A stretch of 35,631 nucleotides of DNA from Pseudogymnoascus verrucosus (GCA_001662655.1 KV460207.1); one strand, 5' to 3'. Counted from the stretch's first letter, positions 5,497-34,010 are shown. The notes: generated from the letters alone by a model not told the origin. Numbers and translations are program-made.

Positions 5497-7135
5497 TCAT
5501 ACCCACCCGACACGTCGGCCAAGTACACTGGCGCCTCCAAAGAAGGCTGTGACTCCGGTGAACACGATAAGAGGGCCGTATCCACTGCCATATCCGAAAC
5601 CTCCCTGACCTTTCCAAGGCATACCTCGAATAAGTATCTCGCTCAATGGGCCCGAGACAACGTTTCCAATCCCTCTCCCTGCCGCAAGACAAGCAAAGAC
5701 CATTACCGGTTCAGCTGAATTCTTCTTCTTCTGGACGGCGCGCATAATTCCCGGATATGTGCTAGTGAAGCTACCGGCAAATAAGCCGTAGATTATGCAA
5801 AAGACGTAAAGGGGTGCGAGAGACACTGAAAAGCCCCAGATGACAAAGATGCCAATGGTAGATCCAATGGTTGATATCACAATACAGGTTGTAACGTGAT
5901 ACTTGTCGACGATGGAGCCCATCGCAATACAACCGAAGACGGAGGCGACGTTGAAGATCACCACTGTAAGCGCACTTTCAACGCTTGATGCTCCGATATT
6001 GCGCGCATAACTGGGAAGATAAATAGACGGAAGAAAGAACCCAAGCGCCTCGATGACATTGCAAGCCTGTAGAATGCCAAATATCTTCGTGTTGAGAAAG
6101 CTGAAATCGATGCGGCGCGATTGGGTGCTTTGAGATAGAGGCACACGAGGCTTCACGAAGTAGAGTAGGGGAGCCGTGAAGACGAACAAAGCAACGGCCC
6201 AAGCTCGAAGGGTGAGTTTGTATCCATACTTCTCAAGGAAAACTTGCATAGCAAGTGGTAAAATAACCCCTGCAAGGCCAGTGCCTGCCTACAGTGAAGC
6301 CGTTAGGTACAGTTTCAATATATCGAAGAGATCGAGCACACATACCCACATAATCCCGAATGCCAACCCTTTCCTTTTCACAAACCACTCGTCCATATAA
6401 ATTATGCATGGAGAATATGCAAGGCTGCCTCCTATAGCATAGAAAATGCCCTGGCTGGCTATGAGGTGGGTAGTTGTCGTTGCGAAAGAACTGAGTGCCA
6501 GAGCTAGGCACATTATGAAGAGGCCCACGCCAGTGCAGTAGGGACGGAATCTTGGCCATATCTGCAAAACTGCAAATATAATGGGCAAATCAAGATACAT
6601 AATACCCTTCAAGGTGTTAGCTGGGCTAATTTTGAACTGACCCTTCCCAGACTAGAGCCGCTATTACTGACCATGGCGCATGTTCCGATAACTGCAATGT
6701 TTCGGGATCCAGCAAATGGTTCATGCGTAGCATAGTAATCCTGGAAAACACCATAGGTGAAAGGGAAGCCTATCGCTGGGGGTCAGCACATCCTACTGTA
6801 ATGGATCCATGTGAGCGTTTTTTTGACAAGAACACACGCAACAACATTGTATGAATACTATGGTGTTATTATCGCCAGTAATGACAGACACAAAGAAGAG
6901 AAATTTAATATGGCATACCCCAAACTAGAGCTTCGATAACAAAACACGCTGCCAGGAAGAGCCACGCATCCTTCCCTCCGTCGACGGGAGGCAGAGAGAA
7001 TTCATGAGGGGTAGGGGAATTTGGAGATTCTAATTCAGCTTCGGCATCCGAAGCCGTATGGCTCTGGTCCTGCCAAACTCCAGAGGTTTGGTGGGAATCT
7101 TCGAATCTGTGAAGCTCAATCTGCGAACTCGCCAT
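5497..7135 (-). CDS. MFS transporter, monocarboxylate porter (MCH-like) family
   Basis: Exons 7135-6919, 6769-6672, 6606-6346 and 6288-5497. Motifs LPPVDGGKDAWLFL, WGFPFTYGVFQDYY and EWFVKRKGLAFGIMWAGTG, with many hydrophobic helices. Confidence 0.92.
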
Positions 7136-7517
7136 TGTGCTGTATATTCTGTATTGTTACTGTCTTCGTTGCGACAACGGAGGAGAGAGCGGGTAGCAGC
7201 GGCGAACTGAGAAGACATGGAGACGCTCGGATAGCCGTCAGCACTTATTCCAAAAGTAGCTTAGTTCCAACGGCTGGACCCTTGCTAGTAACGGATCCCC
7301 GCACGACGTCATAAGCAGCAGGGGTGGGAGTCTCAAAATCTCAAAAACATCTGATCGATGAATCGAAGAAATGGCGCGATGAAAATCTTCAATGCTTGTC
7401 TCAAAAACGATGTTCAACCGCAATATACTCGTTTGAACGTTTTTATCTTAATCTCAGTTGCTATAGATACTACTAGTATAGACAAACCCTCGTCATAGTT
7501 TTGGGCGGCGTGAGTAC

Positions 7518-8597
7518 TCAACATCTAAACTTTAACAATCGCGTTCGCTCCATCCTGGTCAAGAGCGAGGCAAGCTCAACCTCTTCTTTCCCCTCAAACG
7601 CAGCACATATCGACCCCGCCACGAAGTGAGTCTGCACCACCTCCCCTTCAGTAACATGAGCCGACCATGAGGGATCATCGACCGACTTTCCCTCCCCCAA
7701 ATTCTTCCAGCGTGTAATAATGAAGGCCCGGCCTTCTTTACGCCTCCCGACGGCCATCGAGTCGACTCGAAACTCCGTCGCGCAGTAATCACACTGTATC
7801 AAGCCTGAGCATGTGGTGCTAACATCATCTTCCCCGCCATGGGCGCAGCAGTCGCACTTCGCGACGCCAGGCCCGTATTCGACCTCGTTCCCTTTGCTCT
7901 TGTGGAACATACGATACTCGGCCTTGCCATTCGGCAGGTGTATGACCCTTCCACGGACATAAGAAAAGTGCGGGCAGATGAAGGTGACCCAATATTTGGA
8001 GAACTTGCCGTCATTGCCACGGTGGATGATAAAGGTGGACCTATGGCGGGCGATGAGCGTGCCGTTGGCTATTTTTACCGACGAAGTCTCTCGAAAATCA
8101 TGTTGTTTGGTACTAAATTTGTCGGTATCTAATAGCCTCAGGAGAGGCCAGCAGCTGTATGAACCCTGTCGGTGTCGCTTCATCGCCATTTGAAAGACGA
8201 CGTGGCTGAATTTAAAGCCGATATATTTGTCTATTAAGTGGGACACCCTACTGTCGCACCTGCTAGAGTCTAATATGTGCTTCCTATCGAACTTGATAGT
8301 GTGCAACTTGGCGCAGTGGTAGCATGCAATGTAATCTTTAAGGTCTCGCTCGAGGAGGCTTAGGAACTCGGACGTCTTAAAGGGATGATGGCCGCGTTTG
8401 CATTTCAGATAGGGGATGGCGAGTAAGGCGTAAACGGGCGTGCAGCAGAGAGCGAAAGAGGCAGCTGAGGCAGCAGGCAGGAATGTCGCGATGTGGGCTA
8501 AGAGCTCAGGGGGGAGCTTGGAGAGGCTCGAGGATTCGAGCGCATCTGGCTTTAGACGTCGCTTGAATATGGATAGGAGGGTCTCCAGGGGCGCCAT
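7518..8597 (-). CDS. F-box protein with a Cys/His-rich C-terminal region
   Basis: Intronless 359-aa ORF. F-box LSKLPPELLAHIATFLP, followed by CYHCAKLH, CPH, CDCC and CDYCATEF. Confidence 0.8.
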   Translation of the reverse strand: MAPLETLLSIFKRRLKPDALESSSLSKLPPELLAHIATFLPAASAASFALCCTPVYALLAIPYLKCKRGHHPFKTSEFLSLLERDLKDYIACYHCAKLHTIKFDRKHILDSSRCDSRVSHLIDKYIGFKFSHVVFQMAMKRHRQGSYSCWPLLRLLDTDKFSTKQHDFRETSSVKIANGTLIARHRSTFIIHRGNDGKFSKYWVTFICPHFSYVRGRVIHLPNGKAEYRMFHKSKGNEVEYGPGVAKCDCCAHGGEDDVSTTCSGLIQCDYCATEFRVDSMAVGRRKEGRAFIITRWKNLGEGKSVDDPSWSAHVTEGEVVQTHFVAGSICAAFEGKEEVELASLLTRMERTRLLKFRC

Positions 8598-9136
8598 CTG
8601 AGAACGAATAAACTCAAGGTGTGTCGATGCCGTTTGGGCTGATTTGGGTATGCGAGTTTGAATAAAGGAAGAATATTTGGGATGAGGCGGTGCGATTTAT
8701 TATACCGTTCTATAGATCGGTCCCTTGGTGGCATGAGCTGGCCACAACGCGTTTTATAAGACCACTAATGGTCCAACAGCCCATCCATCACTAACATGTA
8801 ACTAGAGGCATTCAGTTACTCACGGCTATAATCAGTAAGTTAGTGACTAACAGATAGAACTGAAGACATAAGCTCTATTAGCTAAAATAGTTAGTATATA
8901 TTCTTAGCTAAGTCGGTCCCTCTTTAGACTTTTAGGTAGCACGAGTATCGAATATCGTGACCTCAAAGCGTCTAGCGATAAAGTACTGCTTGAAACTTTC
9001 CCTGTCCTCGCCCATTCTCTTACTTAACGACTGTGTCTGAATTTACGAACTGGTAGATTGTAGCGCATCTAATTTCTATACCGTTCTAACCACCATGCCA
9101 CTCCTTCCGATAGTGTGCACGCTATCTGCTAGTCAC

Positions 9137-9853
9137 TCAAAATATCCACTGGCTTGCTAGCTGCGTGTACTGCGACGGGTACAGATCGCTCGGCACCTCC
9201 GTGCTTTTCCTCTTCTTGAAATTATCATAAAACCTCTTTAAAGCCGGGAGCTGGGGATCTTCCAGAAGATCGAGGTTGTAAAGGTTGTTTGAAAACTGCA
9301 ACAGGGAAAATAGGACGCAGTCCGCAATAGTTGAAGCGCCACCTCCAGTCTCGAAACGCACATCGCCGTCGTAGTACTTCTCGATCAGCTTGAGATTCTT
9401 CCTTGTCCATTCCATCGCCATCTTAGCCCCCTCTGGGCTTGAGGGCTCAAGAGTCTCAAATAGACGGGAGCCCTTGTGGCAGGCAAAGCCGTAGTGGGCC
9501 ATCGCTTCGTCAGATAACCCGAGGATACTCCTCATTCGAGCTCTGTCTTCGGCCGAGTCGCCTCTCATGCTAGGTTGTCTCGAGTAGCTAGCTAGCTTCC
9601 TCTGCCATTCTCCGCGAGGGTTGTCACAAATATCTTCGAAGTACTCGAGTATGGCTAGGGATTGCTTGATGAAAGAGCCGTCCGGAAGCCGAAGAATTGG
9701 GGTTGTCCCTTCAGGTTTGCCGGGTGCGCCAGTTTGCATGTCAACTGGTGTAATCTTGATCATTCCTGAGTCAAGGAGACCCTTTTCACCGAGGTAAATA
9801 AGTACTCGGCGAGGATAGACACCAAAGTCGAGAACGTAGAGTTCGAGGGACAT
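9137..9853 (-). CDS. Glutathione S-transferase (GTT2-like fungal class)
   Basis: Intronless 238-aa ORF. GST motifs YPRRVLIYLGEKG, cis-Pro TTPIL, QSLAILEY and N-capping STIADC. Confidence 0.88.
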   Translation of the reverse strand: MSLELYVLDFGVYPRRVLIYLGEKGLLDSGMIKITPVDMQTGAPGKPEGTTPILRLPDGSFIKQSLAILEYFEDICDNPRGEWQRKLASYSRQPSMRGDSAEDRARMRSILGLSDEAMAHYGFACHKGSRLFETLEPSSPEGAKMAMEWTRKNLKLIEKYYDGDVRFETGGGASTIADCVLFSLLQFSNNLYNLDLLEDPQLPALKRFYDNFKKRKSTEVPSDLYPSQYTQLASQWIF

Positions 9854-10411
9854 GGCAGTGTATGTTCAATATAGCAGAGTGTAGATTGCAAATGGATCCT
9901 ATGGTAACAAAGGCATCAGAGAATATGTGATAAAAGCATGTTATTTGTAGATAATTTCTCTAGACTCTAAATAGGTGCGAAAGGTCTCCGACGATACCTT
10001 GGGGGGTGTGTTGTGTTATGTTGTGGGGCGCACTTACACGTACCTTTAGTCACCAACGTCGTCTAGGCCCATCCTATAACCCCTGCAATCCTACACCGAT
10101 ATCTAATACAGCAGAAAATGGGAGGCTATGGGTTCTGATTAGAAATCGGGTCTCGACCATGGAGTATTTAGATTAATAGCTGGTTAAACATTTATCATCA
10201 CACGTGCTCTTAAACGTCTGGACCGAGCCGCTGGTCTGGGTCGAGTACAGGCGAATAGAGAACCTGATAATTTAATCACTAGTCGCTTTGAGACTACGAT
10301 AGATTTAATAGTATTTCATTATGAGCTAATTACCGGGAACTATCTCTTACAGTTTGCGATTTTAGTTCTACATCCAAAAATTCTCACTAGACGACAACTT
10401 AGACGCGACAC

Positions 10412-12985
10412 TTAATGGATGGCCATAACTTCCACAGTGGTCCCCCCTGAAAGTCCTTCTAGATGATAGAGAGGCTCTAGGCGGGCATTACTCTGGAATA
10501 ATATGTAACGCTTAATAAACCATGGTAGCCAGGTTCGAGTCTGATATGCGGCGTGGCGTCTCGTAGGGACCCCGAAGATATAATCCAACTCTTCAAGTGT
10601 ACGTTGCCTACTAACTGTTAGTGAATGCTGGATGCTACTAAGACAAAACTTACTTGGTTTCAGGCAGGAAGAAGAAAATGATAACAAAGGCTACCATGTT
10701 CAGACCAGCATAGAAGCCAAACGCTATAGAATATATTAGCAAGAACTACCAACTCATGTGCTGCTACTGCCCCTACTCACCTCCAGTAGGGCCCATGCCA
10801 CTTAAAATTGAGGGGAACGTCAAGCCAAGGATACTAGAAAGTGTATTGTTGATAAATATCGAGAAGGCGACTCCAATCTCCCGATGGGACAATGGGAAAC
10901 ACTCCGAAGCGTAAACGTTTGGAACAGGCCCAATTCCTAAAAACTGTTAAAGAGGAATGAATCACTGAGTCACGGGAAAACGTACCAGGTGAATATAGCG
11001 CTGTAAATAAGTAAACGAAAAAAGCGATAAGTGGAAGGCGTGCGCTGTTCTCTGCAGGGATAAGAAAGCAGCACCCTGCGGCAACCAAGCACCATGCCAT
11101 ATTTGGGAAAGTAAACAGTAGCAGATTCCGGCGGCCAAACGTATCGATTGTCCAGATAGCAGGAAAGGCGAAGATGAAGTTGACAAGGCCAAACCCAAAG
11201 GAAGCAAGGAGGGTTTCTAGCGTATTGGATCCAGCTTCTTTGAATATCGTGGACGAGTAGAATGACATGATGTTAATTCCTGAGAATTGTTGGGCCACCA
11301 TAACGATCGCACCACCAAGGTTTGCTCGGCGGATTCTAGGTATTGTGAATATCTCTTTAGCGCGTTGGGCCAGCGTTGTGCCTTTGAATGCCTCTTCTTC
11401 CTCGACGAATTGGCAATGTGCGTAGTACTATTATTTTGTTAACATCTGTAATCAAGTAAAACTACTGGGTCGGCTTACGAGATCTCGGGCCGCGATAACC
11501 TCAGAATTGCGTAGACGGCAAAACGATCGGAAGGAATCCTTGTAGCGATGCTTCTTGAGGAGCCAACGTGGAGATTCTAAAATGTCAGTCTCGGAACAAA
11601 ATCGTGAACAGATGGGCATACCAGGGCAAAACCATATCAAGATTACAATTGGTACCGCTGGAGCGAAGGCAGCTGCGAGTTGGAACCGCCAGGCAAGCGG
11701 GCCTATACGATAGAACACGAGATTTGAGCAGAAACCGCTATGATCTGTTAGGACAGCGATGGCTATTGGAAAGGTGAGCAACATACACCAGAATACCAAA
11801 CGCAACAAAAAGCTGGAAGCTCATGACAAGTCCTCCGCGAATGGCAGCAGGGACAATCTCAGATGTCATGATTGGGATGGTTGTCGTCTTGATCCCCATA
11901 CCTGCAGTAGTAAGCATCTCTAGTAACAAGAGAGCCACTGCATAGACATACCAAATCCCATAAGCAGCCGGCAAATCAGTAAACTCCACCAGTTATGTGT
12001 AAAGGCTTGTCCGAGCACTGGAAATATAACGCTGGAGAAACACATTAGCTGTTGCATCGTAACGTGTATTTCGGCACTTACAAGAGGCCAGTAATGAATA
12101 TCACTCCTCGACGACCTACCCAATTGTTCATTGGATCGGCTACCCAGGTACTAAAACAATATTAGCTCAGATCTGCGCAGTAGCAATGGAACCCAGCGAT
12201 ACAAGTTGCAGTGGTTTTGATTAGAAAGGAAAGTGATACAAGGTTATGAGAAGAAATTGTCCTTACCTCATAAGACCTGAGATCCCTGGCCTAAGCTCGT
12301 ATTAGAATAAGCGGTTGTTAAGTTTGGTTACCAATACTCACGCAGCGTTGACGAAGCCGACAAGCCAAGTGTTATTCTCAATGCCAAATTCTTTTGGAAA
12401 CGATAGATTCGCTCCATTTGCGCCGGTGTTGTCCCAGCCCCTATGCAGAGTTAGAAAGGTCATCGCATTTGCTTTCTAGAGGCAGAGACGTACTGGATAG
12501 CCGAGCCAAGTGAGCAGATAGCGACGGTATAGTACAGCGCCCAAGGCAAACGCCATTTGTCTAGATTTGAATTTAGAATTATTATTATGAATGGCAGTAC
12601 TCAACTCACGAGTCTTCTCTTCACGAATCGTGATTTTGTCCTCTTCATCGAGCTCTTCGATGTCTTCAAAGCTCTCTGGATGTTGCGCCAGAAGAGATCC
12701 CTTTCGGAAGACAGACGTTTTATCCTCCAGATCATGTTCCTTGCAGAATGCCGTGACCTGTGCCAACAAATCTGGCTTTGATATTCCTAATAAGGGGTTT
12801 CGAATCCTATGGACTGGTCAGCGAGGTTGCTACAAACGATTAAGGATTACACCGTACTTCGCGTTCACATTGTTAGCGTAGTCATCTCCCACATTGATAT
12901 GGCTGTTAGGTGAAGTGAGCCCTTCGACATGATGAAAGTCTTCCTTGCCATTCTTGACAAGCGATGGTGTTGGAGAATTTGACAT
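10412..12985 (-). CDS. MFS sugar porter, polyol/inositol transporter-like clade; about 14 exons
   Basis: The manually spliced product has QGWDNTGANGANLSFP, GRRG, SEIVPAAIRGGLV, PESPRW, QQFSGIN, DTFGRRNLLL, SECFPLSHREIG and PETK..TLEELD. There are 13 GT-AG introns, including a 24-nt exon at 12267-12290. Confidence 0.92.
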
Positions 12986-13071
12986 GGTGGGCCAGAATTT
13001 GAATGGATGTTGCTATCACGCTCGAAATTGATGATCCTGTGGCCAATACCGGGCCATCTTTATACTTCTCT

Positions 13072-13576
13072 GCGGGGACTTGATAAGCTGGTTATAATCA
13101 TTCCGAATACAGTTACCCTCCCTTCAAATCCGGTACGACTGTCGTCGCCTGCGGGGTTGAGGAATGGAGTGCGGGGACCCCAGGTTTTGGTCGGAGCATA
13201 TCCGGGGTCATGGGTTTGTAGCGCCTCGTTATCCCAGCAATCATAGTTCCTTCAGATTACAATATCAACAAGAGCTGAATGGGCGTCGTCATTCCCACTT
13301 TGACGACCTGCGCAGGCAACGCGGGGGGAGATATCGAGTGGCGTAGAGCTATCCTCCAAATGGATGCATGTACGGAGTGGCCCTGCACAGGCACAGATAC
13401 AATATACCAGAAGGATAACAGAGGAGTTGTGACAATTGGAGTGCCACACACACGGTAATTGCCAGTCACATAGGCCAGACCACCCACCCCTGTCGTGCCC
13501 TGTGTGCTCCATCCTCACGCCCCACTTTACCCCACTTTGCCCTGTGTGCTTCCCTCCTCCCCCCCGCTTACCCCGC
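13072..13576. promoter_or_regulatory. Cluster of CreA/Cre1-type SYGGRG sites in the divergent promoter of the transporter and aldolase
   Basis: GCGGGG at 13072, 13151, 13171 and 13321. Reverse-strand copies: CCCCAG 13178, CCCCAC 13530, CCCCGC 13562 and 13571. Confidence 0.55.
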
Positions 13577-13590
13577 CTTACCCTGTGTGT
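13497..13590 (+). repeat. Imperfect tandem repeat of about 41-42 bp (about 2.3 copies) with a CCCTGTGTG core
   Basis: CCCTGTGTG at 13498, 13540 and 13581, separated by similar C-rich spacers. Confidence 0.75.
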
Positions 13591-13607
13591 GACAACCAGT
13601 CATGATT

Positions 13608-13618
13608 TCACGTGATGT
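13608..13618. promoter_or_regulatory. Palindromic E-box TCACGTGA just upstream of a TATA-like element of the aldolase gene
   Basis: TCACGTGATGT at 13608-13618, CATATAAG at 13633-13640, ATG at 13741. Confidence 0.6.
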
Positions 13619-13740
13619 TACCTGGTAGTTATCATATAAGGAGGCTTTCGAGCTGTTAACAGTAACAAGAAAGAAGTCATCCATTCTCACACATCCTACA
13701 CATCCTCACACAATCTTACATTGGCCTATAGTCATTCAGA

Positions 13741-15046
13741 ATGGGCAGCAATTCTATCACCTGGCTGGAGAAGCTGGAGGAGCAGTGTACGTCCACAACA
13801 AAACAGTTTTATGAGAACGGACATGCTAATTTTACATAGTAAATGTCGACGTTGATTCTATGGATCCGACCTTTGCGAAGAGCCTTCCCTTCAAGCCACA
13901 CAACCAAACCAGCAACCAGTTGTTGGTGAACGAGCAGATGTCCATCCCCGAGAATAAGGAGCTGTTTCTCAAGGCGGTAAAGGAGCGTAAAGAACAGGGC
14001 TGGGAAGCTATCCTCACACGCATTGTATGTTTGCAAGCACTGGTGACAGGTTCTGAAACTAACTCTGCGATTCATAGAGCGTCCTCCTCTGCGCCGAGAA
14101 CATCGATAACATTCAAGGCCGTGTCTTGTTGCAAACATCGCCATTCCACGCATACGACACAGATAAGGTTGTTGAGCATGCCCGCGCATATGCGCGCGAA
14201 TTCGAGAGCGTTGGAATCTCCAAGGATCGATTCTGCATTAAGATTCCTTGCACTGGCCCTGCCATGAACGCTGGTCCTATTTTGCTTAAAGATGGCATCC
14301 GAACACTTGGCACTTCGCTCTTTGGACTGCCACAAGCAATTGCTTCAAGCCAAGCTGGATGTCTGTATATCAGCCCCTACTATAACGGTTAGTTTTCATC
14401 AAGTTAAAATATTTACAGCTTACTAACAGAGTTCGTCCCAGAGGTGCGCGCCCACGCCGAGCTGGCTCTCTGGCCAGATGTCGAAGATCCGGCAACACAA
14501 CACACCATGTCTGCAAGAATGATACAGATACTAGAGACGTACAAACGTCTCTACAAGGAGACAGGAAAGGAACAGCCCATGGTGAAATCCGCTAGGTATG
14601 TCGTTGCCATCTTCCTGCGACTGTGTTATATTCCTAACAGCTCTAGTTTCATCTCTCCTAAGGAAGCAATGGCTGCTGGTGAAATGGGTTGCCACCATGC
14701 CACCATCTCGTCTGATGTACTCACTCAGCTCAGCAAGCTCGACTATGACGGTAGCAAGCAGCCAGGAGAAGGCGTACCAAAGCCCATGCATGCGTACAAG
14801 GGTGCAGGTCCAACCCCCGCCCGACTCTTGAAGCTGGCAAAGACAGACCCACTCGCAGCGGCGAACTGGGATGGCAAGTTGGCTAGCACCGACATAGACT
14901 ACCTTGCAAACAATGGAGCCGAGCTAGAAAAGGCTATCGAGGCGGATCCAGTCACCAAGACCCGCCTGTTTGAAGCACTTGATCTTTTCAAAGGCGGGGA
15001 ATTGCGAAGCAAGGCGGCGATTGAGGAGGCAATGAAACAGGTATAA
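13741..15046 (+). CDS. Transaldolase-family (class I Schiff-base) enzyme with FSA-like active-site residues
   Basis: Exons 13741-13786, 13840-14024, 14078-14387, 14442-14595 and 14647-15046. Motifs VDVDSMD, TSNQ, GRVLLQ, catalytic IKIP, GIRTLGTSLFG..Q, ISPYYN, SASF and GCHHATIS. Confidence 0.92.
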
Positions 15047-15185
15047 GGCAACTGTATAGGTTCGCTTCATCATAGCACTTCCTATTTCCTACATAGCACA
15101 GAATGGTTAGCATGAGAGTTAGCATTATAAATGGCGTTCACGTACATTTCTGATGCAAGATCAAACTGAATACCAAGGCTGAAAG

Positions 15186-16330
15186 TTATTGTATGAAGTC
15201 AAAACCACCGTTCTCAGCCCTAGGATGGTTCTGCCCACGAAATTGTGATAAGGAGACACTATTGTTGTATAATAACTGTGTTGAACCGGTGTTGGTATGA
15301 AAAGTTGGCTCGAATAACATATCAAGTGGCCATTCATTGTCAGAAAGCAAATTGTCGAGAAGTTCGCTGTTCAAAGACGTTAGATCCCCAGTCGCAAGAG
15401 AATTGGGCATAGATGAGTATTGTAACGGATTCAATTCCCTTTGTTGTGTTCTAGGATCGTCAGTGTTTGTCTGGAGCGTGTTAAGTGGTAATTGCATTGG
15501 TATAGAATTGGGTAGAGGAGGGGTGGTATCCACTAGACCATTCGTCGGGTTCTCTAATACAGTAGTGAAGTCCGAGTTATCAGGTTGAGTTACGAAATAA
15601 TCGATTTCTCTACCCTGGTCACCCTCAACATCGTCGTATGGGCCATTGTCACCAAATCCACCAGGAAAGGTGCCAAATTCTTCCCGTTCTGCATCCATAA
15701 ACGCCGAAAGCGCCTTTGTTGTTATACGGTGCGGTAGTTGCTGGCTCTCTCCTGGAACGTGAAGATATTGGAGGGCGTTTAGTTGCGTAATAAGTGAATT
15801 GTAATCCGCGAGAAGGTCACGGATTTCGCTAGCAGCAGCAAGGCGGATCGCGCGTTGCTCATTAAGGTACGAGATGCTCTCGTTAACAATGAGAGATTTG
15901 GAAAGCCGACGGGCATGGGCCAGAGGTGGAAGCAGGCGTGCAAGTTCCTATGTGAACACTTAGAAGGAAGCTATTAAAAACATGTAATACATCACCTGAT
16001 GTAAGCCTTCGAACACTGTGCCTGAAAAATATGTCCATCTTGCCAATATAACCGCGTTTATGGATATGCGGCTCTCAGTAAATATTAAGCCAGCACAGGC
16101 TCCAGAAGGCTACCAACAGATCACGGGACAGACTTGGAACCTACAAGAAAGCTTTGATTAAGAGCTTCGCGCCTCTGCTTTTCAATAGAGCGATGTGAAG
16201 CTCGATCCTCGGAAGTAAAGGCCCGTACCCGCTTCTTGGACTTTCGTTTTCCATCTTTTGCCAACAGTGGCTGATCCGATATTCCAGCCCTCCCAGGAAC
16301 CCCCGTTACGTCATTGACTAGAGCCATCAT
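15186..16330 (-). CDS. bHLH transcription factor with an acidic C-terminal region
   Basis: Exons 16330-16145 and 15947-15186. The spliced bHLH reads RASHRSIEKQRREALNQSFLELARLLPPLAHARRLSKSLIVNESISYL, followed by a coiled-coil-like helix and an acidic tail. Confidence 0.88.
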
Positions 16331-16539
16331 AGTGCTGTATAATTATCCGAAGGAAACCCAACTCTTTAATACTTCTTAGAGGATCTAAGAAGCTACAAAT
16401 TGAAATCTAATTTCGGCAGCTTGTAAATAGTTGTATTGTTACACTTATTCCGAAGCCAGTCAATTCGCGATTTAGACAGGCCTTCCCCGCACTTTCCTAA
16501 GTACAAACTAGGAATAAGTCTTTCCGAGATGCCATCCCC

Positions 16540-16550
16540 ACATCACGTGA
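16540..16550. promoter_or_regulatory. E-box ACATCACGTGA upstream of the bHLH gene
   Basis: Exact reverse complement of 13608-13618; about 210 bp upstream of the bHLH ATG. Confidence 0.55.
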
Positions 16551-17208
16551 GAGCAATCTGAAATCTTTCATGTTGCAAAAGCGCCCACCAGTCCTAATCT
16601 TCATTACCTTGCGGATATCCTCCGTAAGGCGCGGGAGATAAATGTCAATCTCGACGATGTATCTGATGATGAATGCGACCACAAGGAATGGAAGTTTCAT
16701 TCATGGCGGGACAGAACTGAGGCGTCCAGTGCTGGGATGGTTAATTATATTTCGTTCTTCCATAGAGATTACACCGCTGAAACCGCGGGCGATATGCCAG
16801 ATCAGGGAGGTATGTACGAGGAGTTTTATGCCGATCTAAGATCCGTCAACCTTTATGTCTGCCATCACGAGCTATAGCAGAAACATTTTCATGGAAAGAC
16901 CGAATTAGCTCTCTGTTGTGCTGATAACGTACTCCACATGCGGGTGGTTGAGTGATCCACACAAGCAAGTGGTGCACTAAACCAGATATCCTAGCCTCCA
17001 TATTTTACTGTGCTTTTCTCGACCCAGCATGCGGAGATCTTGTAAAGAGAAAGGCAGCTAATTGAATCTGACATTCTACCCGTAGAAGAGATATGTGTAG
17101 CGCGGACAAAAGGGGGGAATTAAATTGATAGTCACATGTAATGGTGTCGTTGATGTCATGTGATGATAAGATAGACAACCCTGGAAAACCACCTTAATCT
17201 TCCGGGTT

Positions 17209-17452
17209 CCGAGGATTGCGCCGAGGTTCAGCGACCATTAAGTGGATGCTCCCGAGATACTCGCATACAAGCCGGCAACAATCGCATCCCTCCCAAAATA
17301 TGCACGCCTATATCGCAACAACATTCCCGGAGGCCATTGATTTTCCGCTCTCCACTAGCCCGCCAGACCTGTCTCTCACTGACATACCTCACGTCGAATT
17401 CTTCATATCTGAGATTCGAAGAAACAGTATCATCAAACTGACGTAGCCTCGG
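17209..17452. promoter_or_regulatory. Three FarA/FarB (CTF1)-type CCTCGG/CCGAGG fatty-acid response motifs upstream of ANT1
   Basis: CCGAGG at 17209 and 17221, and CCTCGG at 17447. This motif is established for peroxisomal and fatty-acid genes in filamentous fungi. Confidence 0.65.
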
Positions 17453-17532
17453 CAACAGCACGACATTTCGAAGTGCGGGCCAGGTTTGGAAAAGGAAATA
17501 TACACCTAGAATAACGAAGACACGCCGCTGCA

Positions 17533-18717
17533 ATGGCTGGACAATCAAAGGAGGCACCTATCCCTCCTTGGGGCCTCGCGGTCGCTGGCGCGACTGGTGC
17601 AGTCCTTGCCAACGCTCTGGTGTACCCTCTCGACATGTGAGTATCACCGTGCCCCACAAGCCTCCTAAGTCGATGAACAACTCTAATCCTCTTCTGCAAC
17701 AGCGTCAAGACTCGTATACAGGTCCAAGTCAAGCGGAAGGCAACTGATGCTCCCCCTTCCGCGGGGGACCCCGCACACTACGACTCGACATGGGACGCTA
17801 TCACCAAGATCGTTGACTCTGATGGATACGCAGGCCTGTACGCCGGCATCCAGGGGGCCCTGATCGGCGTGGCCTCGACCAACTTCGCATACTTCTACTG
17901 GTACTCCGTCGTGAGGACCCTGTACATGTCGTCGCGAAAGGACACAGCCGCGCCTGGAACGCTGGTGGAGCTGTCTCTCGGTGCGGTCGCAGGCTCTGTG
18001 GCCCAGATCTTCACGATCCCCGTTGCGGTCGTCACAACGCGTCAGCAGACGCAGTCAAAGGGCGAGCAGAAGGGCATGATTGACACTGGGAGGGAGGTCA
18101 TCAACAGTGAGGATGGGTGGACTGGTCTTTGGAGAGGCCTCAAGGCTAGCTTGGTCCTTGTGGTCAATCCAGCCATCACTTATGGTGCCTACCAACGCCT
18201 GAAGGACGTCATGTACCCGGGGAAGGCAAACTTAAGGCCCATGGAGGCTTTCCGTAAGTACTCGTGCTGACACCTGGTTGCCTAGAGGGTTGTTTCTAAC
18301 GAATTCTCCGTTTAGTTCTCGGTGCTATGTCGAAGTCCCTAGCAACTATTGCTACACAGCCACTTATCGTTGCGAAGGTGGGCCTGCAGTCGAAGCCCCC
18401 GCCTTCCCGCCAGGGTAAGCCCTTCAAGAGCTTCGTCGAGGTGATGGAGTTCATCGTCAAGAACGAGGGCCTCCTAGGTCTGTTCAAGGGGATTGGTCCC
18501 CAAATCACAAAGGGACTTCTTGTCCAGGGTCTCCTCATGATGACCAAGGAACGGTAAGATTCTACGCACTCTGTTCACTTTAAGGCGTAGTTACTGACGT
18601 ATATATAGCATGGAACTTCTATTCGTCCTGCTCTTCCGCTATATCCGCAAGATGAGGAGCGAGCAACTCCAGAAAGCCGCCGCGCTGGTGGCCGCCAAGG
18701 CGCCGCTTATCAAATAG
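17533..18717 (+). CDS. ANT1: Peroxisomal adenine nucleotide carrier (mitochondrial carrier family, ANT1/PMP47)
   Basis: Exons 17533-17636, 17703-18253, 18316-18553 and 18609-18717. Carrier signatures YPLDIVKTRIQ, IPVAVVTTRQQ and QPLIVAKVGLQ, plus TNFAYFYWY and LVVNPAITYG. Confidence 0.92.
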
Positions 18718-31004: not shown

Positions 31005-33766
31005 TCACCTCTCCACCGCCCCCGGAACCCCAGCACCCCCAGCACCATCACCCATCCCCACCCCACCGCCCGTCAAATCCGCCCAATCCCACTCCAGTGT
31101 CATAGGCATATTCCACAAATCCGGCGGCACAAACGGCTGCTGGAAGCTCTGCGGGTTAATCGGGGAATGCGGATCCGCCCCCGACAAGTATCTACTCATA
31201 TCCGGGAACGGCACTCCCCCACCGCCACCACCATTCGCCGCCGCCGCCGCAGCAGCAGCCGCATTAGACAGATGTTCGAAATCCGTGGCGATCTCATGGA
31301 ACCCCGCATCAGACATCCAACTCATATCCTGCGCCTGCCCACCCCCCCTCCCATCCGCAGCCGAGTACGACGTCACATCCCCATACCGAAACTGCGGCGG
31401 GGTCTGCCCGGCACTACTGCTAGGCGGGGGTCTCGCAATCGGCGGCCTATTAACGCTAAGATTCGGGAGCACCTCATCGAGTTCCTTGCGCTTTCGGCGC
31501 GTAGTCGTGTCGCGATCGGCTTTGTCGAGGACGACGCGGGCGATGCGCTCGAATTCGGCGCAGACGCCGAGCATGCGTTTTACGCCTGTGTTTTCGTCTT
31601 CGCCGGCGAGCATGGAGAGGAAGTTCACGACGAGGTTCATGAGCCGGACGTCGGAGCGGGCGCGGGGGTCTTGGGGGTTTTGGAGGATGTTGCCGAAGAG
31701 GGTCATGAGGGCGGAGACGGGGTAGTAGAGGATTAGCCTGTGGGAGGGGAGGGTTAGTTTGTGTATTGTGATGTGGGGAAGGGGGGGGGGGTGATTGGAG
31801 GGGCTTACCAGACACAAGAGAAATCGCCTTGGGGAACGTATTTGACGAGGTGGATTGAGGCGCGTGCGGAGGATACACACAGCGCCGCGGACGAGAAGAC
31901 GCGCGGGTTAAGCGGTCGCGAATTCAGGCCCTGGATGGCGAAGTTGGAGAGTCGGCTTGTCCAGTAGCCGTGGTGGATGGACATGCGGTGGATGGTGGTG
32001 AGGCAGTTGTAGTATCCGAAATGTAGCACGACGACGTGGAGGATGAGTGGAGTATGCGATGCCTTGATTTCGTGCTCGGGGCGGAAGTCGATGGGGATGC
32101 TGTCTTTCCACTCCTCGAGCTGCTGGTCTAGCTCGCCGATTGTGTTGAGTAGTTCGCCGTCTGACTGTTTTGAGGCGCGCGTCGAGTAGAGCTGGGTGTA
32201 TACCTTGCTCACGATCGTGGAGAACTCGCACATTAGTCGGAACAGGTTGACCTTGCCCTTACCATCCGCCAGCGGGATGTTACCGATGTTGTCCTCTGGG
32301 TCCGCGCTCGGAAGCTCCACATTCATATCATCGTCATCCTGTACGGGCGGCCGCCCGAAGCGCAGGCAGATGTCCTTGTCGAGCATATACCCAATCCAGA
32401 AAACGCGCTTGCGCTGCTCAATCTCAATTGGGTTGAGGTTGAAGCCCGACCCGCGCTTGTGCAGCCCGATGCTGTGCGACAGCCTGATGGCGGATGCGAC
32501 CAGGAGGAACGACGGCTGCGGGTTCGGCGTGCCTTGCATGAATAGCGCCATGCCGAGGAGCGCTTGTACGCTGAGAAGATCGGTGTTGCGCATCGTTAGC
32601 TCGGTGTACACCGCCATGGCGTTCTTGAGGTAACCCCACGCCTTCTGGTCTTCCTCTTCCGGGACCAGATTGCTCATAACCCGTAGGCGATGCGCAATGG
32701 CGAGGGCGATATTCAAACTCGCCCACCATCCTGATCCGTCATATGGGTCGCGAGAATATTGTCGCTCGACGAGGTGCATGAAGGTCGGTTGGTGGAAGAG
32801 AGGGAACATGCAGTTGAAGTTCTCAAAGAAGTCCTTCAACAGAGACAACGCCTCTGCCTTCTGCGGAAGCTGGAGATATATGCGCCGCTCGAAGATATCA
32901 CCAAACACCTCCGGCTTCCAGTACACCCACTTATTGTCATCGACCGTCGCCTCCGCGATCATAGTCTGAAACGACTGATCGCCCGTCTTCTCATTCACCC
33001 ACTGTATTCCCTTGGGCGAGAATATCGAGAACCCCGACGACGACCCAATATACCTCGTCTCACCCTGATCATTAGTAACGAGCGAGCACATCAAATCCGA
33101 CAGCTCCTCCACCTCCTCCGCGGTCTTCTCCCCCACCCTCCGCTCCGACCCCCCCATCGTCCCCGGCGTGGGCACACTATTCGGGCTGTCGGACTCACCC
33201 TCCGCGCCCGGCGTCCCCCTCAGCGTCGTCGCCTGCGACGGCGACGTCGGGATCGAATCAGAGAAGTGACTCGCATCCCTCTTCGCAGACTCGCGACTCG
33301 CCAAGCGTTTCTCCAACATCCCCAAATCCGTACTCCCCCCATCATCCTCATTCAGCAGCCCCGACAACCTCAGCAGATTCTCCATCCTCCCCAGCCTATT
33401 CTCCAGCCCCTCAATATACTTCGCCCCCTTCGGCGGACTCCTCTTCTTCTCCACCTGCGTAAACACGCACTCGGTCTTGTAGTTTGTGCAATGGCTGCAC
33501 GCGGGCATCTGGCCATCGCACTTGATCTTCTTCTTCCGACACATGTCGCACGCGCGCGCGATGCGCCGCCGCTTCGCCTCGTTGCTGTCGTCGAGCAGGG
33601 TTCCCGCGTCGCCGAACATCCCAGAGGTGAGGCCCATGCCCTCGAGGCCGGTGAGGATGGGTGAGCCGTCCGCGGCGTAGGAGCCGAAGATCTGCGGCGG
33701 CGGGTCGTGGTTTAGGTGCGCGGAGGCGTGCATGGGGTAGGTGTGATGGTTGGGGTTGGGAGACAT
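31005..33766 (-). CDS. Zn(II)2Cys6 transcription factor with Fungal_trans domain, resembling the AtrR/FTF2 group
   Basis: Exons 33766-31809 and 31737-31005. [29 protein letters not shown]; middle homology region [32 protein letters not shown]-terminal [13 protein letters not shown]. The ortholog assignment is from memory and the start codon is uncertain. Confidence 0.88.
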
Positions 33767-34010
33767 GGTGGTCGTGGTCGTGGTTGCGCGTGGCGCTGTG
33801 GGTGGTGGTGGTTCTGTCGTCAGTCGCAAGACGGATGGTGGATGTGGGATGGTGTGAGCATGCCAGTCTCTCAGACCGGATGAGTTGGGATTATATGTGG
33901 CGGGGTTCGTGGTATTTCGTTTCTCGTTCCTCTTTCGCAGATATTATCGATCTTGATCTCTCGCCGCCGTTCCCATATAATTATTTGGTAGTGGTTCCCT
34001 CTCTATCTCT

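Follow-up and report, generated by a model that had tools for sequence, protein, structure and literature searches.

A conserved sugar porter-aldolase-bHLH gene trio in Pseudogymnoascus verrucosus and other fungi, a candidate module for the use of a non-phosphorylated ketose

Layout of the gene trio

We analyzed a stretch of 35,631 nucleotides from the Pseudogymnoascus verrucosus genome (GCA_001662655.1, KV460207.1), here called the window, in which three genes lie together at 10412-16550: a sugar porter of the major facilitator superfamily (MFS) on the minus strand, an aldolase of the TAL/FSA family on the plus strand, and a basic helix-loop-helix (bHLH) transcription-factor gene on the minus strand. 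The porter and aldolase genes stand head-to-head, with 755 bp separating their start codons (12986-13740), and the aldolase and bHLH genes converge, with 139 bp separating their stop codons (15047-15185). This trio is a conserved unit that recurs in other fungi together with a repeated promoter element, and we propose that it may serve the import and cleavage of a non-phosphorylated ketose. Its parts are as follows.

10412-12985, minus strand: sugar-porter (MFS) gene, 14 exons, 618 aa; start codon 12985-12983, stop codon 10412-10414
Exons 1-7 of the porter gene, minus strand: 12858-12985, 12610-12806, 12494-12560, 12342-12440, 12267-12290, 12082-12150, 11952-12031
Exons 8-14 of the porter gene, minus strand: 11787-11901, 11622-11737, 11479-11576, 10986-11427, 10781-10936, 10654-10723, 10412-10607
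12986-13740, no strand assigned: shared divergent promoter, 755 bp, with a TATA-like CATATAAGG near 13633
13741-15046, plus strand: TAL/FSA-family aldolase gene, 5 exons, 364 aa; ATG at 13741, stop codon 15044-15046
Exons of the aldolase gene, plus strand: 13741-13786, 13840-14024, 14078-14387, 14442-14595, 14647-15046
15186-16330, minus strand: bHLH transcription-factor gene, 2 exons (16145-16330, 15186-15947), 315 aa; ATG at 16330, stop codon 15186-15188

The gene models were rebuilt from full-length orthologs and splice signals, and they bear out the coordinates and geometry, including the spacings of 755 bp and approximately 140 bp, that a first-pass annotation had assigned to the three genes. 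The porter model is identical to its ortholog P0122 at approximately 604 of 618 residues (~98%), the aldolase model to P0001 at 352 of 364, and the bHLH model to P0241 at 314 of 315; aldolase exon 3 also matches a Pseudogymnoascus protein at 100% identity, as bHLH exon 2 does another Pseudogymnoascus protein. Spliced contigs were seen for all three genes, with introns that have GT..AG ends. These contigs derive from relatives at least 90% identical and come from three studies with four public runs, whose records are marked only as possible RNA; they are evidence of splicing alone, not of levels, strand or induction, and no run recorded as RNA contained the stretch. They confirm 4 of the 13 porter introns (10608-10653, 10724-10780, 11428-11478, and 11577-11621), reproduce the bHLH intron (15948-16144, positioned after helix 1), and skip all four aldolase introns, three as joints (13787-13839, 14025-14077, and 14388-14441) and the fourth (14596-14646) via a loose end.

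Domain assignments were made on the orthologs. The Sugar_tr profile (PF00083) matches P0122 over its full length (319 bits, residues 122-565, profile positions 3-452 of 452), and a cytosolic N-terminal extension of ~120 aa precedes this domain. The names given to relatives of the porter by source databases disagree, ranging over sugar/inositol, polyol, and galactose-proton symport. PF00923 matches P0001 with 106.1 bits against a cut-off of 27, and exon 3 of the window alone reaches 66.4 bits. PF00010 matches P0241 with 43.2 bits against a cut-off of 20.7, and the protein aligns to the bHLH domains of MYC2, CLOCK, Myc, and Max.

Conservation of the trio in other fungi

An alignment of 17 aldolase family members retrieved 39 metagenome loci, which were searched by tblastn with the three trio proteins; the taxonomy of each locus is inferred only from its nearest named aldolase. 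The aldolases of these loci are 46 to 89% identical to the window's protein, and the nearest named ones come from Pseudocercospora (Dothideomycetes), from Penicillium, Aspergillus, and Thermomyces (Eurotiomycetes), and from Hyaloscypha and Pseudogymnoascus (Leotiomycetes). Of 19 loci whose upstream sequence is 1,300 bp or longer, 16 have a porter ortholog there, on the opposite strand (L034, L037, and L038 do not), and of 23 loci whose downstream sequence is 1,100 bp or longer, 22 have a convergent bHLH ortholog there (L037 does not). Where both sides were informative, the whole trio was found in the same orientation in 15 of 16 loci, or 12 of 13 after duplicate pairs were merged. Three such pairs (L002/L003, L017/L018, and L032/L033) have identical tblastn coordinates and scores across different metagenome records and are probably the same fungi sampled repeatedly.

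Little else is shared among the loci. An all-against-all comparison of open reading frames (ORFs) in 16 long loci returned only the three trio families as widely common, antisense-frame shadows aside, and Pfam scans of 84 flanking ORFs gave unrelated neighbors from locus to locus. Locus tags in named genomes also place the genes together: aldolase and porter tags are consecutive in Cadophora gregata (ONS95_008548/008547), Penicillium chermesinum (N7468_003909/003910), and Aspergillus hancockii (BBP40_011771/011770) and two apart in Pseudocercospora eumusae (AC578_1860/1858); Venustampulla echinocandica has adjacent tags for the aldolase and the bHLH (BP5553_06615/06616); and in two more Pseudogymnoascus genomes a single gene separates the porter tag from the bHLH tag (VF21_02177/02175 and V500_06819/06821). 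A chance arrangement in the window is excluded because the layout is kept elsewhere, and the trio is a conserved unit whose co-localization exceeds background synteny. The first-pass annotation had suggested searching for the trio in synteny across Pezizomycotina; the search was run, and the 15 of 16 informative loci, together with locus tags from Leotiomycete, Eurotiomycete, and Dothideomycete genomes, answer it affirmatively.

A repeated element in the shared promoter

The promoter between the porter and aldolase genes carries several copies of a short element, listed here with the two nearby copies of the E-box CACGTG.

13382-13391, minus strand: motif B copy, CCTGCACAGG on the plus strand, which is CCTGTGCAGG on the minus strand
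13496-13507, plus strand: motif A copy 1, TGCCCTGTGTGC
13538-13549, plus strand: motif A copy 2, TGCCCTGTGTGC
13579-13590, plus strand: motif A copy 3, TACCCTGTGTGT
13609-13614, no strand assigned: canonical E-box CACGTG, 127-132 bp upstream of the aldolase ATG; not kept in most other loci
16544-16549, no strand assigned: CACGTG, 214 bp upstream of the bHLH start codon; a possible autoregulatory site

The element was defined by counting k-mers in 14 non-redundant porter-aldolase intergenic regions, among which L004, L006, and L014 are close relatives, bringing the number of independent lineages nearer to 9 or 10. CAGGGCA and ACACAGG each occur in 14 of the 14 regions, compared with a maximum of 9 in 200 mononucleotide shuffles. 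The element has two forms with the common core CCTGTG, namely, motif A, TGCCCTGTGTGCG, and motif B, CCTGTGCAGG; all 14 regions carry one or the other, at a density ~70-fold or more above that of the rest of the loci. Motif A has 27 sites, mostly oriented toward the aldolase gene and 145-640 bp from its start, and motif B, a near-palindrome, has 22. Counted as patterns, CCTGTGTG (motif A) has 27 matches in the 12,526 bp of intergenic sequence and 6 in the other 204,114 bp of these loci, and CCTGTGCAG (motif B) has 22 and none, respectively. Within the window, YCCTGTGTG has 3 copies, all at 13498-13589, where 100 dinucleotide-preserving shuffles gave a mean of 0.43 and never reached 3.

The element was also looked for outside the regions that defined it. 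Among loci beyond the 14 that have at least 350 bp upstream and do not lack the trio, it is present in 7 of 9 (L001, L008, L010, L011, L022, L027, and L039, with L026 and L031 lacking it). It was not found within 1,300 bp in the loci without the trio (L034, L037, and L038) or at a distant paralog (37%) on a short contig.

We also considered the E-box as the conserved signal of the shared promoter and rejected it, as CACGTG occurs in only 3 of the 14 intergenic regions and the conserved element contains no CANNTG. CACGTG has a density of 0.24 per kb within the intergenic regions, compared with 0.14 per kb outside them, and no CANNTG variant was clearly enriched in the 14 regions. Within approximately 1 kb upstream of the bHLH gene, CACGTG was found in 5 of the 12 loci with at least 480 bp available there. 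The window holds four copies (10201, 13609, 16544, and 26749), fewer than the shuffle mean of 7.0; three of them lie around the trio: one past the porter 3' end, one in the promoter between porter and aldolase, and one ahead of the bHLH gene.

The bHLH gene as candidate regulator

The basic region of the bHLH protein, KKRVRAFTSEDRASHRSIEKQRREA, has the His-x3-Glu-x3-Arg pattern of CACGTG-binding bHLH proteins, and binding of this type is therefore predicted. Orthologs in the other loci have the basic region KKRVRxWTxxDRAxHRxxEKxRREA in common and an intron at the same place. A homolog search by common words gave 24 matches, all Leotiomycete-named or unnamed; the narrow distribution that these would imply was rejected when tblastn on the fetched loci revealed the sensitivity limit of the word search.

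The bHLH gene is the natural candidate for a regulator because it is the sole other gene that travels with the porter-aldolase pair. A dedicated bHLH regulator, as the first-pass annotation had it, is plausible: its gene is kept beside the pair, yet the conserved promoter element is not an E-box, and CACGTG is sparse in the regions. The mismatch between a non-E-box element and a CACGTG-type basic region means that the factor reading the element may be unlinked. Under this alternative, the porter and aldolase genes would form a co-regulated pair, an unlinked factor would read TGCCCTGTGTG or CCTGTGCAGG, and the bHLH gene would be kept nearby for some other reason, e.g., a shared chromatin domain, overlapping convergent 3' ends, or a role in a wider response. 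The canonical basic region, the absence of any clearly enriched CANNTG variant, and the absence of the element upstream of the bHLH gene all speak for it. However, in 22 of the 23 loci where it could be assessed, the bHLH gene keeps its position and orientation amid changing neighbors, and in fungi such retention of a neighbor gene usually marks a functional link. In addition, the bHLH gene and the element coincide, both being missing at L037, and the unusually long conserved basic region could extend or alter the DNA contacts of the protein. We consider a bHLH protein without a regulatory role here unlikely, though it has a real chance of being correct, and we retain the adjacent bHLH as the most likely pathway-specific regulator.

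Fold and active site of the aldolase

The aldolase adopts a TalB-type fold. Its AlphaFold2 (AF2) model has a mean pLDDT of 93, with a less confident stretch at approximately residues 265-310, and Foldseek places it with the transaldolases of E. coli, Francisella, mouse, and human (TMt 0.80-0.86). Its key residues are Asp21, Asn41, Gln96, Lys132 (Schiff base), Thr156, Ser176, Tyr178, Glu181, Ser232, and Ile234. The TalB residues retained are the Schiff-base Lys132, Asp17, Asn35, Thr156, Ser176, and Ser226, and the counterparts of four of them (Lys132, Asp21, Asn41, and Thr156, aligned to TalB Lys132, Asp17, Asn35, and Thr156) are invariant in 17 aligned members. Relative to E. coli TalB, Glu96 is replaced by Gln (LLQTSP), Phe178 by Tyr and Arg181 by Glu (both in ISPYYNE), and Arg228 by Ile (SASFIS). 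The aldolase thus has Gln96 and Tyr178 in place of the Glu96 and Phe178 that mark a classical transaldolase, and the phosphate site formed in TalB by Arg181, Ser226, and Arg228 reads Glu181, Ser232, and Ile234.

These substitutions are a property of the family. Each of the 57 family members surveyed has the SPY motif containing the Tyr, and the Gln motif was present in the 52 with a sequence that fit the search pattern; Gln96 and Tyr178 are invariant across the 17-sequence alignment, and neither Glu at position 96 nor Phe at position 178 was found among the 57 members. At position 181, one clade (clade 1) has Glu and a second (clade 2) has Phe, Leu, or Pro; Arg was never seen there.

Because the aldolase shares Gln96, Tyr178, and Glu181 with engineered TalB variants, these variants rank as its best PDB sequence matches: 3kof (F178Y/R181E, E-value 2.6e-17), 4rz6 (E96Q/F178Y, 4.3e-17), 9qpk (E96Q/F178Y/R300E), and 3cwn (F178Y). 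The variants 3KOF and 4RZ6 have the same TIM-barrel fold as the aldolase (TMt 0.83-0.84), with Gln at 96, Tyr at 178, and Glu at 181 as in the fungal protein. Unlike them, the fungal aldolase is natural, is only ~23% identical, has Ile for Arg228, and is known from sequence and model; its C-terminal region is also ~45 aa longer than that of TalB. The E96Q change was reportedly designed to mimic Gln59 of FSA, as the PDB titles suggest.

The second comparison is with FSA itself (E. coli FsaA, 1L6W), which belongs to the same PF00923 family. Residues 129-190 of the aldolase align without gaps to residues 82-143 of FSA, so that Lys132 corresponds to Lys85, Thr156 to Thr109, Ser176 to Ala129, Tyr178 to Tyr131, and Glu181 to Arg134; Gln96 was mapped to Gln59 through TalB Glu96 and the 4rz6 variant, and equivalents of FSA Asp6 and Asn28 are also present. 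According to PMC13259622, Lys85 and Tyr131 of FSA form the catalytic dyad, the catalytic water is ordered by Gln59 together with Thr109, and docking of a phosphorylated acceptor was centered on Arg134. The aldolase accordingly holds the catalytic set Lys85/Tyr131/Gln59/Thr109 and has Glu181 where FSA has the phosphate-docking Arg134. It falls outside the FSA subfamily in architecture: FSA is a decamer-forming chain of 220 aa, whereas the aldolase has 364 aa in a TalB-type arrangement, and FSA structures cover less than half of the model (TMq 0.46-0.48).

Experiments on TalB and FSA, as reported in PMC3962226, indicate what such residues do. F178Y alone turned TalB into a dihydroxyacetone-dependent aldolase, R181E gave TalB a better affinity for unphosphorylated D-glyceraldehyde, the phosphate-binding site of TalB consists of two Arg and one Ser, and Ser at position 129 of FSA (A129S) favors dihydroxyacetone as the donor. 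The fungal Ser176 stands at this last position, as in TalB and in the dihydroxyacetone-preferring A129S variant. Taken together, the residues suggest a natural dihydroxyacetone-type aldolase for a non-phosphorylated ketose, FSA-like in its chemistry yet outside the FSA subfamily. The earlier label of an FSA-like aldolase therefore stands for the catalytic residues Gln96 and Tyr178 and fails for subfamily membership, given the 364-aa chain and TalB-type fold; the accompanying idea of a free sugar substrate is upheld as a fit, since both phosphate-binding Arg positions are replaced.

A more conventional reading is that the enzyme is an ordinary transaldolase paralog of the pentose phosphate pathway, acting on sugar phosphates in a neighborhood that has no meaning. 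Names and fold agree with it: source databases call family members "transaldolase" or "transaldolase B" (other names given are "aldolase" and "hypothetical"), the ESM Atlas has only clusters auto-named "Transaldolase" (all eukaryotic), and the fold is of the TalB type. Against it stand the replacements at positions 96, 178, 181, and 228, the invariance of the Gln/Tyr pair in the aligned members and the lack of Glu or Phe among those surveyed, and a synteny and promoter element conserved far beyond chance, and we judge it very improbable.

A proposed module for the use of a non-phosphorylated ketose

We propose that the trio is a conserved three-gene nutrient-use module for the import and cleavage of a non-phosphorylated ketose, with a probability of roughly 0.55. 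In this proposal, the porter would import either a neutral sugar or a polyol, the latter to be oxidized to the ketose by a housekeeping or neighboring dehydrogenase. The aldolase, acting as a class I enzyme through a Schiff base on Lys132 with Tyr178 as acid/base in an FSA-type mechanism, would split the ketose into dihydroxyacetone and a neutral aldehyde, and both products would enter glycolysis and central metabolism through housekeeping enzymes. The porter and aldolase genes may be driven together from one bidirectional promoter with the repeated element TGCCCTGTGTGCG or CCTGTGCAGG, and the adjacent bHLH protein would most likely act on it as the pathway-specific regulator. D-Fructose, L-sorbose, D-xylulose, sedoheptulose, and deoxy-ketoses are guesses at the substrate, chosen for the 3S,4R stereochemistry of the enzyme class, a configuration that PMC3962226 reports for its products. 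The more specific claim, that this is a kinase-free fungal route for a free ketose in which the bHLH protein of the cluster reads the non-E-box TGCCCTGTGTGCG/CCTGTGCAGG, is more tentative; it is probably not right in every part, yet it has a substantial chance.

The direction of flux could also be the reverse. The aldolase might condense dihydroxyacetone or glycolaldehyde with an aldehyde, either detoxifying reactive small carbonyls or making a ketose or compatible solute, and the porter might then either bring in a small substrate, such as glycerol or dihydroxyacetone, or carry the product out. Reactions of FSA-type enzymes are reversible, and these enzymes are employed mostly for synthesis (PMC3962226, PMC13259622). 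The module contains no downstream catabolic gene, and some relatives of the porter are annotated as polyol transporters by their sources. On the other side, an importer and one cleaving enzyme on a shared promoter make up the usual layout of a utilization cluster, and a non-catabolic module seems to us distinctly unlikely.

Several observations weigh against the proposed catabolic module. The aldolase activity is predicted from ~10 aligned residues in a protein with ~23% identity to E. coli TalB. The Gln/Tyr signature is also found in clade 2 (Fusarium and others), whose two loci with flanking sequence lack the porter, and in the L037 paralog, which lacks both trio partners, and the enzyme family thus also lives outside the porter-aldolase-bHLH module. 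On the regulatory side, the 14 intergenic regions do not represent 14 independent lineages, the element lacks any CANNTG and was not found upstream of the bHLH gene, and CACGTG is infrequent in those regions despite the canonical His/Glu/Arg basic region. A further point concerns redox chemistry. The first-pass annotation had noted no kinase or dehydrogenase gene, and this stands for the window, where the scanned ORFs neighboring the trio gave no match to a kinase or dehydrogenase domain. It does not extend to all loci: a short-chain dehydrogenase is common to four of them (L004:13421-14371, L006:11924-12868, L009:13024-13821, and L038:6083-6991), beside the bHLH gene in the Dothideomycete-like L004, L006, and L009 and upstream of the clade-2 aldolase in L038. 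Neither motif A nor motif B was found near these four genes, which may provide a lineage-specific redox step, e.g., from polyol to ketose.

Comparison with known systems

In known fungal sugar-utilization clusters, an importer and an enzyme gene diverge from one promoter, with a transcription-factor gene adjacent. The trio resembles these clusters in its shared promoter, its adjacent regulator gene, and its preservation as a unit while the flanks change. It departs from them in having a bHLH rather than a Zn2Cys6 regulator, a single enzyme with no kinase, an aldolase of the TAL family, and a promoter element that is not a CGG-type Zn2Cys6 site. The closest TAL-family precedent for a peripheral sugar pathway is BmSF-TAL of the sulfo-TAL pathway (8BC3), which handles a substrate with a non-phosphate tail. 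It is a weak PDB match to the aldolase (E-value 5e-5) and differs from it as a bacterial transferase of a short subfamily (~220 aa); the fungal locus is without sulfosugar genes.

No description of the trio cluster, or of a natural TalB-type enzyme with Gln96 and Tyr178, was found in the full-text literature searched, which covered few subscription-journal papers, and given that scope an earlier description of the cluster may exist. The kinds of system are known, namely, a fungal utilization cluster and a TAL-family aldolase; what is new is an unusual enzyme, an unusual class of regulator, and a newly defined cis element.

If the proposal is correct, the trio would provide a kinase-independent, single-enzyme route for sugar entry into fungal central metabolism, and its sugar cluster would be unusual among fungi in having a bHLH protein as pathway-specific regulator. 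Soil, plant-associated, and cold-adapted fungi widely carry the module, whereas most model species seem to lack it, a possible reason for its having gone unnoticed. Biocatalysis has a demand for natural dihydroxyacetone aldolases that take unphosphorylated aldehydes; here, a natural TalB scaffold already carries the engineers' E96Q, F178Y, and R181E changes, and the family offers many variants of that scaffold, the two clades differing at position 181 as described above. The promoter element, being sharply defined, is moreover a directly testable handle.

Neighboring genes and family relationships

Other ORFs scanned around the trio in the window encode a glucosidase II beta subunit, an MFS_1 transporter, F-box, GST, mitochondrial carrier, PIR, and MOSC proteins, and others. 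Three genes of the window, none of which is kept beside the trio in other loci, and one additional intron are listed here.

5497-6651, minus strand: MFS_1 transporter
9137-9865, minus strand: GST
31805-33943, minus strand: Zn2Cys6 transcription factor
15088-15144, minus strand: intron between the aldolase and bHLH stop codons, seen in one spliced contig, with CT..AC ends (weak support)

This intron probably lies in the 3' untranslated region (UTR) of the bHLH transcript. That UTR may reach or enter the aldolase 3' end, giving convergent overlapping transcripts.

In two Penicillium-like loci (L035:5687-6520 and L036:5580-6662), an alpha/beta-hydrolase gene directly adjoins the porter gene. Three Penicillium database entries (P0143, P0147, and P0152), of 757-843 aa, bear the annotation of a hydrolase-transporter fusion, probably because two gene models were merged.

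The second aldolase clade, with proteins such as P0043, P0021, and P0025, comprises sequences from Fusarium, Colletotrichum, Diaporthe, Clonostachys, Verruconis, and some Aspergillus and Penicillium species. Its signature, SPY[YI]N[FLP]PW[YF]H, keeps Tyr178, along with Gln96, and has a hydrophobic residue at position 181. Its two loci with flanking sequence (L034 and L038) are without the porter and the promoter element and have no downstream sequence in which to look for a bHLH gene. A TalB-like ortholog group with a patchy distribution in some Aspergillus and Penicillium species is mentioned in PMC6231085. The L037 locus (6815-18476) holds an aldolase paralog ~45% identical to its nearest named relatives in a different neighborhood, with genes for a flavin amine oxidase, a RidA/L-PSP protein, a glyoxalase-family protein, an amino-acid permease, and a Zn2Cys6 factor, and may be a separate cluster for amine or aminoketone metabolism.

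No bacterial or archaeal relatives carrying the family's two signature peptides were found (one genome per species). Close relatives of both the aldolase and the porter are present in Basidiomycota. In an unrooted FastTree tree, the basidiomycete aldolases (P0009-P0019, P0034, P0046, P0055, and P0107, from Mycena, Roridomyces, Favolaschia, Schizophyllum, and Exobasidium) form one group with an SH-like support of 96. They adjoin the Leotiomycete sequences and are nearer to them than the Eurotiomycete members are, and their exon 3 is 83-88% identical to that of the window, a closeness for which transfer between phyla and very slow evolution are both possible explanations.

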